From positions 477 to 64,476 of the forward strand of contig CAMOBD010000001.1 in NCBI GenBank assembly GCA_946578345.1: 64,000 bases of DNA, read 5' to 3'. Each line of letters begins with the position of its first letter. Within the stretch, counting starts at the first letter, position 1. Below the pieces are notes generated by a model. That model was not told the origin of the DNA. It saw only the letters and a program-made list of their open reading frames with translations, and searched no databases. This stretch comes from an uncultured Clostridium sp. (GTDB lineage Bacteria > Bacillota > Clostridia > TANB77 > CAG-508). Position numbers and translations under genes: made by a program. Shown here piece after piece: positions 46,663 through 52,048 of this stretch.

Positions 46663-46742
46663 AAATCCGTTCTATCTTGCTGTCACATATATTTTGTGTT
46701 CTCCATGTATTCAAACAAAAAATATATGTGACACGTGGAACT
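46663..46742. repeat. ~80-bp palindromic intergenic repeat, copy A
   Basis: See the finding on this repeat family. Compare 48716-48795 and 51971-52048. Confidence 0.55.
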
Positions 46743-46784
46743 ATAAAGCACATAAAAAATATTTAAAATCTACAATTGTAATTA

Positions 46785-47603
46785 TTATAACTGAGCTTTA
46801 AAAGCCGAATAATTAGTCGCACTTTTAAGCTCTAAAACTAATTTATCTTTGGCAGGTAAATCAGAGTTTTTCAAAAGTTCTACTTCTTTATCAACATCAT
46901 ATGGTAACCTAACTAAATTAAAATTAATAGGAGCAAGTTCTTTTGAATCTAACACACCCTCTAATATCATATATGAAGCAAGAGTAGAAAACTTGTTAGT
47001 TTCATCAAAAAAATCATCATTAAGCATCTCAATTGGAGCTCCGACGCTACCTGGATTAAATATGGTTTTATTTCTAGCTCTAACTATATTTGGTGTATGT
47101 ATATGTCCATATCCAACAATGTCAGGAATTGGATCTGACTTAGATTTACCAAGGAACTCAGTATTTTCAAACATATCCATAGGATTATGTATCTCTATAC
47201 TTTCATAACGACTATTTTCATTAGAAAACATTGGATTAAAAATATAATCTAATCCAAATGGAGATGAATGAAATAATCTAATTAAATAACCACTCATATA
47301 GAAATCATATGAAATAGGAAGATTATATAAAAAGGATGCACGTTCTTCACCAATTTGGTCTCTTGTCCAATATCTTCCTTTAGGAATGTCTGGTCTGGAC
47401 ACCGGTACATCACAATTACCTTTTAGAAGAACATCACATTTTTCTCTAACCAAATCAATTACTAAATCTGCATGACAACTTTTCATGACATAGTCACCTA
47501 AGCAATATATTTTATTTATTTTTCTCTCTTCAATATCTTTTAGAACAGCTTTTAAAGCAGTAATATTACCATGAATATCAGAAATAATTGCGATTTTATC
47601 CAT
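46785..47603 (-). CDS. Metallophosphoesterase (calcineurin-like phosphoesterase)
   Basis: A GGAGGTG RBS precedes the MDKIAIISDIHGN start. The motifs DIHGN, GDYV and GNCD are present, and there is a His-rich C-terminal half. Confidence 0.6.
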   Translation of the reverse strand: MDKIAIISDIHGNITALKAVLKDIEERKINKIYCLGDYVMKSCHADLVIDLVREKCDVLLKGNCDVPVSRPDIPKGRYWTRDQIGEERASFLYNLPISYDFYMSGYLIRLFHSSPFGLDYIFNPMFSNENSRYESIEIHNPMDMFENTEFLGKSKSDPIPDIVGYGHIHTPNIVRARNKTIFNPGSVGAPIEMLNDDFFDETNKFSTLASYMILEGVLDSKELAPINFNLVRLPYDVDKEVELLKNSDLPAKDKLVLELKSATNYSAFKAQL

Positions 47604-47729
47604 AACCACACCTCCACAAAATAATTTTTGTATATTATAATATAAATTGTAGATTAATGCAATTGTTAAATAGTAACATTGTATAAAATTCATAATAAGA
47701 TTATAATAAATATGAAGGAGGAATGAGAG

Positions 47730-48689
47730 ATGATAAATCATATAGGGAATACTCCAATGATAAAGATTTTATATAAAAATGGAGGACAAATAAATTATAT
47801 ATATACAAAACTAGAATCATATAATCTTACCGGAAGTATAAAAGATAGAGTTGCATATTATATAATTACAAAAGCAAAAGAAAGAGGCACGCTAAAAGAT
47901 AACATGCCTATAATTGAAGCGACCAGTGGAAATACTGGTATAGCTCTTGCTGCATTAGGTGCATACTATAATCACCCAACATATATTTTTATGCCTGATT
48001 GGGCAAGTGAAGAAAGAGTAAAACTAATGAAAAGTTATGGAGCAGAAGTAATACTTGTATCAAGAGAAGAGGGTGGATTTAAAGCTTGTCTTGAAAGAGC
48101 AGAAAAATTAGCAAAAGAAAGAAATGGATTTTTAGCAAATCAGTTTGCAAATACAGACAATTTATTAGCACATTATGAAACAACAGGAGAAGAAATTGTA
48201 AAATCGCTTCCAGAAAAAGTATCTGCATTCATATCTGGAGTTGGTACTGGAGGAACTCTAATGGGAGTAGGAAGAAAACTAAAAAAACATGATGAAGATA
48301 TAAAGATTGTGGCATTAGAGCCAGATAAAATGCCTATAATTTCTCAAAACAAAATGATTGAAAATCATAAAATAGAAGGCATAGGGGATGATTTTGTACC
48401 AGATTTACTAGATAAAAGTATGTTGGATGAGATAATTCTTGTAAATGATGATGACGCTGTGAATATGTCAAGGAGATTAGCTAAAGAATTAGGTCTAGGA
48501 GTAGGAATATCATCAGGAGCAAACTTTATTGCGGGAGTGCTATATCAAGAAAAAGTAAGTAAGCCAGTTGTTACTGTATTTCCAGACGATAACAAAAAAT
48601 ATTTAAGTACGGACTTATCAAAAGAGATAGATAACAATGAAAATTTTGTATCAAATAAGATTGAGTTACTAGATTATGAAGTAGTATAA
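47730..48689 (+). CDS. cysK: Cysteine synthase A (O-acetylserine sulfhydrylase)
   Basis: An AAGGAGG RBS, the PLP-lysine motif 'TGSIKDR', 'TSGNTGIALA' and a Gly-rich 'GVGTGGT' loop. Confidence 0.75.
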   Translation: MINHIGNTPMIKILYKNGGQINYIYTKLESYNLTGSIKDRVAYYIITKAKERGTLKDNMPIIEATSGNTGIALAALGAYYNHPTYIFMPDWASEERVKLMKSYGAEVILVSREEGGFKACLERAEKLAKERNGFLANQFANTDNLLAHYETTGEEIVKSLPEKVSAFISGVGTGGTLMGVGRKLKKHDEDIKIVALEPDKMPIISQNKMIENHKIEGIGDDFVPDLLDKSMLDEIILVNDDDAVNMSRRLAKELGLGVGISSGANFIAGVLYQEKVSKPVVTVFPDDNKKYLSTDLSKEIDNNENFVSNKIELLDYEVV

Positions 48690-48715
48690 TCAATATTTAT
48701 TTAAAGCAGCATATA

Positions 48716-48795
48716 AAGTCCGTCCCATCTTGCTGGCACACATATTTTGTATTCTCCAAGTATTCAAATAAAAAATGTGTGTGCCACGTGGGACT
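48716..48795. repeat. ~80-bp palindromic intergenic repeat, copy B (between cysK and the lysozyme gene)
   Basis: A GTCCC…TGGCACACATATT / AATGTGTGTGCCA…GGGAC hairpin. Confidence 0.55.
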
Positions 48796-48847
48796 AAGTA
48801 TGTAAAAAAAATAAACCAAAACGTAATTCCTTTCATAATATATAAAA

Positions 48848-50472: not shown

Positions 50473-50523
50473 ATAATATATAACAAAATTAATACTACGG
50501 CTTAGCAAGAGGTGTGTCCCTCT

Positions 50524-50541
50524 TGTTTCAAATTTGAAACA
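50524..50541. promoter_or_regulatory. Perfect 18-bp palindrome TGTTTCAAATTTGAAACA, flanked by direct TCCC(T)CTTTGTTTCAAA repeats and an extended -10 (TGTATAAT), upstream of the M16 peptidase operon
   Basis: Read directly from the sequence, with TGTATAAT at 50573-50580. This is a candidate operator. Confidence 0.35.
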
Positions 50542-50636
50542 AATGCTCCGTCCCCTTTGTTTCAAAAAAACTTGTATAATTTGGCAAAAATAATATATAA
50601 TAATGAAGAACAATAAAAAGGAAAGGAAGAAGTTTT

Positions 50637-51911
50637 ATGAATTATGAGAAAAAAGAAATAAAAAAGGGAATAAATATTCACAATATTTCTACGAATAAGT
50701 TTAAAACAAATTTGTATGCAGTTTTTTTAGCAACTCCAATGGATAGGGAAAATGTAACAAAAAATGCATTGATAACAGCGATTTTAAGAAGAGGGTCACA
50801 AAATCTACAATCTCAAGATATAATAAGTAAAAAACTAGAAGAAATGTATGGTGCATCATTTGATTGTGGTATAGAAAAAACAGGAGATAATCACATAATG
50901 AAGTTTTATCTTGAAGCAATAAGTGAAGAATTCTTACCAGAAAAAGAAGAACTTGCTAAAAAATGCATAGAAATATTACTAGATATAATATTTAATCCTT
51001 TAATAGAAGATAACGGATTTAAAGACGAATATGTAGAAAGTGAAAAGAACAATTTGAAACAAATAATAGAGTCAAAAATAGATAATAAAAGAACATATTC
51101 TTTAGAAAGATGTGTAGAGGAAATGTTCAAAGATGAGCCATATGGCTTATATAAATATGGTTATGTAGAAGATTTGGATAAACTAACTCCGCAAAACTTA
51201 TATGAATACTATAAAGAGTTAATTAAACAATGTAAAATAGACATTTTTGTATCAGGTACAATGGATAATGAAAAAATAAATAGCATAATTGAGCAAAATG
51301 ACATAATAAAAAATCTAAAAGAAAGAGAGCCTGTATATGTAAAAAGTGATGAAAATAATAATCACAAAGAAGTAGAACAAGAAAAAGTAGTAGAAGAACA
51401 TATGCAAGTAGGACAAGGAAATCTTGTAATAGGACTTAAAGTAAATAGCAATCAAGATAATGCAAAATATATAACTTCTGTATATAATGCAATACTAGGT
51501 GGAGGAGCTAATTCAAAATTGTTCCAAAATGTTAGAGAAAAAGAAAGCTTAGCATATACAGCAGCATCAAATTATAGAAGACAAAAAAATGTAATCTTTA
51601 TTAGATGTGGTATAGAAATAGAAAATTATAAAAAAGCGATAGACACAATAAAAGTGCAATTAGAAGATATAAAAAGAGGCAACTTTACAGAAGAAGATTT
51701 GAATAATTCAAAGAAATTGATTACAGAATCAATAAGAGGTATAAGCTCTGAGCAAGATACAGAAATAACTTACTATTATGGACAAGAATTGTCAGATAGG
51801 CTTGTATCATTAGAAGAGTATGTTAAAAAAATAGAGGAAGTAACAAAAAAAGATGTAGAAGAAATTGCAAATGAGATTAGGATAGATACAATCTATTTCT
51901 TGAGAGATTAG
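50637..51911 (+). CDS. M16-family peptidase homologue lacking the HxxEH zinc motif (likely the non-catalytic partner)
   Basis: Pitrilysin-like two-domain architecture. There is no HxxEH and it is paired with the downstream M16 gene. Confidence 0.55.
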   Translation: MNYEKKEIKKGINIHNISTNKFKTNLYAVFLATPMDRENVTKNALITAILRRGSQNLQSQDIISKKLEEMYGASFDCGIEKTGDNHIMKFYLEAISEEFLPEKEELAKKCIEILLDIIFNPLIEDNGFKDEYVESEKNNLKQIIESKIDNKRTYSLERCVEEMFKDEPYGLYKYGYVEDLDKLTPQNLYEYYKELIKQCKIDIFVSGTMDNEKINSIIEQNDIIKNLKEREPVYVKSDENNNHKEVEQEKVVEEHMQVGQGNLVIGLKVNSNQDNAKYITSVYNAILGGGANSKLFQNVREKESLAYTAASNYRRQKNVIFIRCGIEIENYKKAIDTIKVQLEDIKRGNFTEEDLNNSKKLITESIRGISSEQDTEITYYYGQELSDRLVSLEEYVKKIEEVTKKDVEEIANEIRIDTIYFLRD

Positions 51912-51915
51912 TTTG

Positions 51916-51943
51916 AAAAATAATTGTGTTTTGGCGTTGTTAA
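51916..51943. repeat. 28-bp direct repeat, copy 2 (just after the M16 gene stop)
   Basis: A 27/28 match to 41055-41082. Confidence 0.45.
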
Positions 51944-51970
51944 AATTTACAATTTATATGACAAAGTTTA

Positions 51971-52048
51971 AAATCCGTTCCATCTTGCTGGTACATATAT
52001 TTTGTATTCTCCATGTATTCGAATAAAAAATATATGTACCACGTGGAA
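51971..52048. repeat. ~80-bp palindromic intergenic repeat, copy C (between the two M16 genes)
   Basis: A GTTCC…TGGTACATATATT / ATATATGTACCA…GGAAC hairpin. Confidence 0.55.

Follow-up and report, generated by a model that had tools for sequence, protein, structure and literature searches.

A covarying, nested family of intergenic hairpins in uncultured gut Clostridia, interpreted as a probable mobile DNA module

Introduction

Within a 64,000-nt stretch of DNA from an uncultured Clostridium sp. (contig CAMOBD010000001.1), referred to throughout as the window, a palindromic element of ~80 bp is present in three copies between protein-coding genes, and a preliminary description of the locus drew attention to differences between the copies that were matched by complementary changes in the opposite arm. 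The question thereby raised is whether the element is a structured RNA or a repeat resembling those known as REP (repetitive extragenic palindrome) elements, given that strong covariation in a multi-copy element is not proof of a functional RNA, selection for copying leaving an equal signal. Small hairpin repeats have been well studied in the Proteobacteria (REP and REPIN sequences together with RAYT enzymes), and have hardly been described in uncultured AT-rich gut Clostridia.

The three copies belong to a previously undescribed family that is restricted to a narrow lineage of AT-rich gut Clostridia, and which provides a clean example of such a repeat, with 15 inner-stem variants that are nearly all perfectly paired, gain and loss of copies within species, and systematic nesting. 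The interpretation favoured here, with a probability of about 0.6, is that the family is a non-autonomous, structure-dependent mobile hairpin module with its nearest counterparts among REPIN/REP elements or MITEs (transposable elements of the miniature inverted-repeat kind).

Results

Structure of the element

Each copy was bounded by the limits of a covariance model, and all three were found on the + strand at the places originally described, with slightly wider limits (Table 1). When up to three mismatches were allowed, a 46-nt consensus matched only these three places in the window and nothing in 100 shuffles; copy 3 is the window copy nearest to the family consensus. The long interrupted hairpin claimed for each copy was confirmed by folding z-scores between about -5 and -8, the values for copies 1, 2 and 3 being -5.3, -5.4 and -7.2 as RNA and -5.3, -5.4 and -7.9 as single-stranded DNA (ssDNA), while the complementary strand of the copies folded slightly more weakly than the + strand.

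The element is ~83 nt long and forms an interrupted hairpin of 7, 16 and 5 bp. Its 7-bp outer stem (GTTCCAT/GTGGAAC) closes with an invariant T.G pair (T14.G74), and is separated by an asymmetric CTT/C bulge (5' side CTT, then C) from an inner stem made up of a G-C pair followed by 15 bp, within which a core of 8 nt is hypervariable. Above the inner stem lie a 1x1 internal loop, a 5-bp apical helix and an 11-nt loop. The hairpin is flanked by a 5' tail, AAARTCC, and a 3' tail, TAC, so that the two ends are asymmetric (AAARTCCG... versus ...CTAC), and the 3' flank of the copies on the + strand reads CTAC...AAAA.

Extent of the family

The collection assembled comprised 29 copies, 27 of them distinct, from six uncultured Clostridium/Clostridia metagenome-assembled genomes (MAGs) and from metagenomes. 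An exact-pattern scan of one genome per species gave 16 further loci, all confined to six MAGs, CAKNQJ01, CAZPKK01, CALXVO01, CALXWQ01, CAKNRV01 and CAJFHE01, whose labels read uncultured Clostridium sp. or Clostridia bacterium, and the richest of which held at least nine matches; as the MAGs are incomplete and the pattern is strict, these counts are lower bounds. The scan of metagenomes yielded six true copies, the other 17 pattern matches being due to chance. A covariance model built from 19 copies then detected a second copy in contig L006, a 53-nt version devoid of the apical region in L001, and further copies in syntenic contigs of related species, which had been fetched via homologues of the adjacent metallophosphoesterase and of the window's own cysK. 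The search for further copies and the covariance modelling, both proposed in the preliminary description as checks, thus produced more copies and stronger covariation.

The reported conservation of a ~28-nt loop fared less well. Of the 29 copies, 16 were retrieved with the initial pattern, in which large parts of the left arm and of the 5' half of the loop had been fixed; where copies were found through the covariance model only (L006:23, L021 and L060), the loop was variable. Conservation that is independent of retrieval is limited to the right arm, the A-run and the CTAC tail.

Covariation of the stems

Standard pairs occupied 98.5% of the pair cells, which count sequences rather than substitution events, and changes on both sides were recorded at 13 of the 28 pairs. 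The corresponding covariation values were unreached in 500 column shuffles, sliding the pairing partners by 1-3 columns collapsed the proportion of paired cells to 33-61%, and RNAalifold independently returned the same structure. All four Watson-Crick pairs were represented at columns 25-67, and the 8 bases that follow CTTGCTG were present in 15 versions, 12 of which were perfectly complemented by the other arm. Inner-stem versions such as GTAAACAT and GTAGACCT were shared by loci with different flanks and in different MAGs, from which it follows that the compensated stems are inherited via copying, as subfamilies.

The compensatory pairs originally listed were each present (tgTcaca/tgtgAca, tgGTaca/tgtaCCa and gtCcc/ggGac, plus cacACat/atGTgtg with one U.G wobble), and the proposal of covariation maintaining the stem proved to be well founded. 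U.G pairs that are wobbles on the + strand only were found at columns 9-79, 12-76, 23-69 and 29-63, as well as at the invariant 14-74. A U.G wobble also results from TTACATAT, which the conspecific contig L017 has at the position of copy 1. Single-base differences between conspecific copies resulted in U.G in three cases and in an A.C mismatch in two, outcomes that indicated no clear strand preference.

Gain and loss of copies

Comparison of syntenic contigs established that the element is gained and lost among closely related genomes, presence/absence polymorphism being observed both among strains and between the window and a sister species that is 89-90% identical to it in the phosphoesterase. 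One case involves copy 3, which lies within a 206-nt block. In four conspecific contigs (L071, L072, L076 and L077) the two M16 genes are separated by a 28-nt spacer, TTTGAAAAAAGAAAGG, with no trace of the block, whereas the window has 206 extra bases plus a second AAAAA at the same site.

At the site of copy 2, the sister species has the uninterrupted sequence GAGGTAATCTGTAAAAAATAA in a cysK-lysozyme spacer of 62 nt. The cysK product of the window ends ...EVV* (319 aa), while that of the sister species (L021) ends ...EVICKK* (322 aa); as the product at the empty site is 3 residues longer, the insertion of copy 2, which overlaps the cysK end around 48683-48689, would have shortened the gene in the lineage of the window. 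The junctions of this putative insertion, and the AGTAT duplication that appears to surround it, are deduced from the between-species comparison of the window with L021.

Conversely, two spacers in which the window has no copy, the divergent cysK/phosphoesterase spacer and the lysozyme-rpsU spacer, are occupied in the sister species. In L061 the latter holds a 174-bp insertion, inside which the hairpin lies and which is marked by a TAAATAT duplication and by terminal inverted repeats (TIRs) of 11 bp (TTACTGTTCTG/CAGAACAGTAA); another sister-species contig, L062, offers an exact empty site for it. The duplications seen for the composites were TAAATAT for the 174-bp carrier and AAAAA for the 206-nt block. 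Whether a copy was present or absent, the genes around the polymorphic sites remained unchanged. Five relatives with 70-78% protein identity had short spacers at all three sites of the window, and ~20 kb of syntenic DNA from each contained no match to the model.

Decay in place

The ortholog of copy 3 in L061 differed at 7 of its 83 positions, and six of these changes affected positions that are invariant or near-invariant in the family (C6, C7, C15, T16, T20 and G74); the rest of the inserted block was 3-6% different between the window and L061, and the adjacent coding DNA 10-13%. Other copies in the sister species scored only 71-93 bits, one consisting of the left arm alone (L021 holds degraded or partial copies). 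Old copies therefore appear to drift, in L061 at around the background rate, whereas across the family the stems remain perfect and the unpaired motifs do not change.

As a separate observation, the entire block (51921-52126) was ~3-8% diverged from L061, below the value for the flanking M16 coding DNA, a difference which hints that the block is either younger than the species split or has been exchanged by recombination.

Nesting and carrier elements

Extra left arms before, and extra right arms after, a complete element were recorded at L003, L014 and L015 (one MAG), L016 and L006. The resultant nested palindromes have two or three layers, in which the inner element replaces the apical part of the outer layer; one three-layer composite recurred at three loci of a single MAG, and one two-layer composite in two MAGs. 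At L005 a terminator-like stem (AGAACAGTAA/TTACTGTTCT), with TTTTT after it, encloses the element in a loop of 140 nt and overlaps the stop codon upstream. More generally, flanking inverted repeats of at least 10 nt were present around 6 of 22 copies versus 23 of 462 controls with mismatched flanks. The hosts of nested copies include other copies of the element, another repeat family, a MITE with TIRs, and terminator-like stems. Because it is found within so many hairpin contexts (the composites, the L005 loop and the flanking inverted repeats), the 83-nt hairpin is best regarded as a module, usually nested within larger repeats or hairpins, a feature that the preliminary description had missed. 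With regard to the L005 stem (L005:199-365), it was also observed that the same pair of 10-mers, AGAACAGTAA and TTACTGTTCT, serves in swapped order as the TIRs of the 174-bp carrier MITE (L021/L061).

The 206-nt block that carries copy 3 is built up, in order, from a second repeat family's left end, a linker, copy 3, a small terminator-like hairpin, and a tail that resembles the right end of this second family. Its left end corresponds to the first 35-39 nt of the ~115-nt second-family repeat, which itself forms a long hairpin (-38.4 kcal/mol, z = -6.3). Homology between the 83-nt hairpin and the second family was not detected, 75% of shuffles scoring at least as high. Both carriers, the 174-bp insertion and the 206-nt block, look like DDE-type MITEs. 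A full copy of this intergenic second family (GAAAAATAATTG.GTTTTGGCG...GCCTAGCCAAAAC..CAATTCTTTTC), ~115 nt in length, was noted elsewhere in the window (41051-41169, + strand). Just 3' of copy 3 within the block, the AT-rich hairpin followed by TTTT at ~52063-52090 (AAAAGAATG-AACTTAAG-CATTCTTTT) may be a weak terminator that arrived with the block.

Table 1. Coordinates and properties of the hairpin copies, the composite block, the putative insertion and the second repeat family (window positions unless a contig is named)
Feature	Position	Strand	Details
Hairpin copy 1	46662..46744	+	inner stem TCACATAT/ATATGTGA; 103 bits
Hairpin copy 2	48715..48797	+	inner stem GCACACAT/GTGTGTGC; outer stem GTCCC/GGGAC; 103 bits
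Hairpin copy 3	51970..52052	+	inner stem GTACATAT/ATATGTAC; 112 bits
Composite block with copy 3	51921..52126	+	206 nt; bounded by AAAAA on both sides
Putative insertion with copy 2	48688..48796	+	~109 nt; AGTAT at 48683-48687 and 48797-48801
Second repeat family, truncated 5' part	51913..51951	+	GAAAAATAATTGTGTTTTGGCGTTGTTAAA; left end of the 206-nt block
Second repeat family, copies elsewhere	L001:4467-4581, L001:5007-5123, L002:6396-6517, L007:2763-2880		

Neighbouring genes and orientation

The genes flanking the three copies matched the contexts originally given (UDPGP-phosphoesterase, cysK-lysozyme and M16-M16), the UDPGP and metallophosphoesterase genes being on the - strand, and cysK, the GH25-LysM gene and the two M16 genes on the + strand. 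Copy 1 lies between the start of the UDPGP gene and the stop of the metallophosphoesterase gene, and is antisense to both, while copy 2 begins 26 nt past the cysK stop. Copies of the family were always located between open reading frames (ORFs). At some 20 sites the element lay 9-79 nt beyond stop codons, and pointed the same way as 15 of the 19 genes upstream and 17 of the 19 genes downstream.

Orientation was uniform per contig: all three window copies point the same way, including the antisense copy 1, as do the 3-4 copies on sister-species contigs, and the three and two copies on two CAKNQJ contigs. The invariant T14.G74 pair is a wobble on the + strand only. In Firmicutes, most genes point with replication, and where genes are co-oriented with the element, the + strand is the lagging-strand template. 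Given this gene arrangement, the co-orientation bias could be accounted for by a role at the level of the transcript and equally by a DNA mechanism that is strand-specific. Copy 1, antisense to its neighbours yet oriented like copies 2 and 3, favours the DNA-strand reading, although it is a single case. GC skew, which was tried as a means of separating replication from transcription orientation, merely tracked gene strand.

Searches against known RNAs, repeats and signals

Comparison with Rfam, as recommended in the preliminary description, identified no RNA family that matches the element: at gathering thresholds, the sole match of Rfam 15 in the entire window was a tRNA, and a permissive search with copy 3 recovered only generic hairpins (microRNA precursors) far under threshold, the best score being 20.9 bits versus a threshold of 90. 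The element was equally without match in viral contigs (searched with two patterns), a plasmid collection and a phage collection, and a search of literature full text for its sequence strings gave no match except one synthetic oligonucleotide.

A number of candidate functions were considered and rejected. An intrinsic terminator requires a GC-rich stem plus a T-tract, and the opinion that the element is not a simple terminator was upheld, there being neither a T-tract nor a terminator-like call at any of the three copies. Promoter-like sites were not enriched in the region (31 versus 38 expected from shuffles). As to a small ORF, the only ATG in the loop is on the - strand, and roughly half of the copies have CTT in its place. 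Integron attC sites have the core sites R''/R' (RYYYAAC ... GTTRRRY) at the hairpin foot, and form a co-oriented cassette array beside intI. In the foot of the element, GTTCCAT...GTGGAAC, the 5' arm contains GTT and the 3' arm AAC whichever strand is read, and the R positions are pyrimidines; the genes around it are housekeeping genes, on both strands. In copy 2, L044 and L060 the immediate flanks form an extra outer helix, but this was not general (permutation p ~0.10).

Other features of the window

The 3' part of a tRNA gene at 22319-22391 (- strand) is repeated at 22581-22650 and 33517-33586. These two distal repeats, of 70 nt each and 97% identical to one another, enclose ~11 kb that includes a tyrosine integrase (ORF 23249-24142), a sortase and a helix-turn-helix protein, with a phage replisome-organiser ORF (21382-21828) just outside the bracket. 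The region has the appearance of one element, or a tandem pair, integrated at a tRNA gene. A Pfam scan of this island (22-33 kb) for transposases confirmed the tyrosine integrase and detected no HUH enzyme.

Elsewhere, repeated AAAATATTACAAAAATATTACA motifs at 53876-53920 and 55291-55335 precede a series of small paralogous genes (ORFs 53992-55292), annotated in syntenic contigs as TrbC or type IV secretion system pilin-like, beside PrgI and TraC-like genes. This conjugation- or pilus-like cluster stands next to housekeeping genes, and is conserved across the whole lineage.

Discussion

Proposed mechanism

Structure, covariation, and the gain and loss of copies are established for the element, which behaves as small selfish mobile DNA would; the scheme outlined here is inferred beyond these findings. 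The element would spread, or be carried along, within the genomes of the narrow AT-rich lineage of gut Clostridia in which it was found, with the hairpin required for mobilisation, probably as folded ssDNA, and with a trans-encoded HUH/Y1 enzyme of the RAYT or IS200-like type as the candidate mobiliser. New copies would arise only from those in which the stems, end motifs and loop motifs are intact, and a need for both fold and motifs during copying would account for the combination of perfect stems of varied sequence, constant unpaired motifs and decay of old copies. Copies would tend to insert into the loops of other hairpins, or to persist there, generating nested composites that would then move as units, some of them by ordinary cut-and-paste with target duplications. 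Where a copy is co-transcribed, its 22-28 bp stem probably affects mRNA processing or stability, which would be a by-product rather than the reason for the family's existence.

Of the two possibilities raised in the preliminary description, that of a REP-like element is the better supported. The structured RNA gained no support, none of the tests made here showing a regulatory RNA: there is no Rfam match, ssDNA folds equally well, copies are gained and lost, the L061 ortholog drifts, and copy 1 is antisense.

A number of considerations weigh against the proposed mobile module. No mobilising enzyme was found when 665 kb of related DNA was searched with phmmer for a Y1 transposase, an IS200 TnpA sequence serving as query in what is a weak and partial test. 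The presence and absence of the block at the copy 3 site could also represent precise deletion between the A5 repeats. At both exact empty sites, what varies is a larger composite accompanied by a short duplication, and the bare 83-nt hairpin is presumed to move independently on the strength of its many different contexts. Simple copies gave no significant sign of target duplication, the longest shared flank word averaging 4.6 nt in true flank pairs versus 4.3 nt in mismatched pairs. The orientation bias is explained equally well by an RNA function, the argument from decay draws on one orthologous pair, and the copy number is low, with at least nine exact-pattern matches in the best MAG and three copies in 64 kb of the window. 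Finally, the arms of the element (GTTCCATCTTGCTGG... and ...CCACGTGGAAC) are not individually hairpin-forming, so that, unlike a REPIN, it is not a REP doublet.

Alternative explanations

The most serious competitor is a cis-acting RNA under selection at each locus, in the form of a hairpin, 3'-untranslated or intercistronic, at which 3'-to-5' exonucleases would be held up or RNase III would cut, thereby setting the relative expression of its neighbours, spread being secondary. REP, ERIC and Correia repeats affect mRNA in such ways. The location of the element 9-79 nt past stop codons, its co-orientation with most of the genes on either side, its long near-perfect stems with U.G wobbles on the + strand only, and the conservation of its unpaired motifs would all be expected on this basis, and a role of the transcribed hairpin at the RNA level, whether in stabilising mRNA or as a target of RNase III, agrees with its position and orientation and is quite possible. 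It is nonetheless unlikely to be what maintains the family, because copies come and go between strains and sister species with the surrounding genes unaltered, copy 1 is antisense to both of its neighbours, and motif positions that are otherwise 'invariant' have changed in the L061 ortholog about as fast as the background. Furthermore, A.C mismatches, which would be wobbles on the other strand only, arose about as frequently as new U.G pairs, no Rfam family was matched, and the conservation of the loop is partly due to the retrieval pattern.

An ordinary MITE mobilised by a DDE transposase, with arms that are TIRs read as double-stranded DNA (dsDNA) and complementary simply as two copies of one binding site, would be consistent with the short duplications (TAAATAT and AAAAA) of the units at exact empty sites, with the clean 11-bp TIRs of one of them, and with the possible AGTAT duplication around the copy 2 insertion. 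These TIRs and duplications belong to the carriers, however, and not to the 83-nt hairpin, the termini of which are asymmetric (AAARTCCG versus GTAGTTCC on the other strand). Its inner arm is free to vary provided that it remains paired (15 haplotypes, and four Watson-Crick pairs at columns 25-67), and as a sequence-specific dsDNA-binding transposase would not tolerate such freedom, its involvement is improbable; simple copies also exhibit no significant target duplication and have a strong orientation bias. Very improbable indeed is a set of independently transcribed small RNA genes, or of dsDNA binding sites for a regulator or nucleoid protein. The 5' tail contains TAAART, which is like a -10 hexamer, one consensus promoter-like site ends in copy 3, and the palindromic symmetry of the element might recall an operator, but a transcript initiated from that -10 would lack the outer 5' arm even though the outer stem covaries, promoter-like sites were no commoner than in shuffles, and no terminator follows the element. 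The half-sites are moreover 33 nt apart and hypervariable, which is unlike an operator, and the pattern of gain and loss fits neither version.

The mobile hairpin module favoured here could, more speculatively, reflect an uncharacterised Firmicutes mobilisation system specific for ssDNA, which would read structure plus a few unpaired motifs, prefer the loops of hairpins such as terminators, other repeats and earlier copies, and thereby build mobile 'Russian-doll' palindromes; this extension is considered unlikely. Less likely still is an RNA-mediated, SINE-like copying of co-transcribed hairpins. Possible uses of the family include its deployment as a strain-typing marker and as a handle on the enzyme that moves it.

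Comparison with known systems

REP and REPIN sequences and the element alike are imperfect palindromes of extragenic DNA, able to fold into a long hairpin as ssDNA or RNA. REPINs have conserved ends and compensatory changes in their paired spacer (PMC3116915), a combination paralleled by the conserved end regions and compensated stem of the element. REPs carry GTAG 5' of the hairpin, equivalent to CTAC on the other strand, and CTAC plus a stem bulge recall recognition by TnpA_REP (PMC8266576); the element has such a bulge, and CTAC at its 3' foot in 20 of the 27 distinct copies, the others reading CTAT, CTAA, CTAG or CTTC. This CTAC overlaps the last stem pair by 1 nt and is confined to one end, the left end being without an inverted GTAG. 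Mosaic and nested clusters, as in bacterial interspersed mosaic elements, and slow decay at orthologous sites are further points of similarity. By way of contrast, the two ends differ, unlike those of REPINs (TCCG versus GTAG, and TCTTGC versus CG), and the element is AT-rich with a stem far longer than the 20-35 nt GC-rich REP. It is present in tens of copies at most, whereas REPs number hundreds, usually exceeding 100 copies per genome (PMC2817692). A genome with REPs also has, as a rule, one RAYT gene with the repeats on either side of it, and the weak and partial search of 665 kb gave no such gene. The low copy number of the element is compatible with the report that in Clostridia, Group 1 RAYTs have only ~12 associated repeats per replicon (PMC5581495).

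MITEs and related stem-loop families such as Correia/NEMIS, ERIC/IRU, RUP, BOX, bcr1 and SMAG (PMC3184786) resemble the element in being small, non-coding and intergenic with inverted-repeat arms, variable between strains, often co-transcribed, and mutually nested. They differ in that the termini of the element are asymmetric, and its stem, instead of being a TIR of fixed sequence, is free to vary so long as it pairs. Mobile DNA located preferentially within palindromic repeats, as here, is known from IS1397 and ISPpu9/10 (PMC1525189), which are, however, full insertion sequences with transposase genes, as opposed to an 83-nt non-coding hairpin.

TIRs do not reach the ends of the 83-nt core as they would in a MITE, clean 11-bp examples being present only on the 174-bp carrier of L061. 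The ends of IS200/IS605 elements, reportedly described in 2010 by Ton-Hoang and colleagues as imperfect hairpins active on one strand, with asymmetric ends, a bias to the lagging-strand template and no target duplication, share these features with the element, in so far as its simple copies have no significant target duplication, as do the palindrome-associated transposable elements (PATEs). Such insertion sequences nevertheless end in two short subterminal hairpins, whereas the element is one long hairpin in which the ends pair together, and no conserved target tetranucleotide could be made out for it. The element is a new addition to a known class, that of the hairpin-forming, non-autonomous intergenic repeats, within which it is unusual in its very clear covariation, its preferential residence in other hairpins, and its Russian-doll composites.

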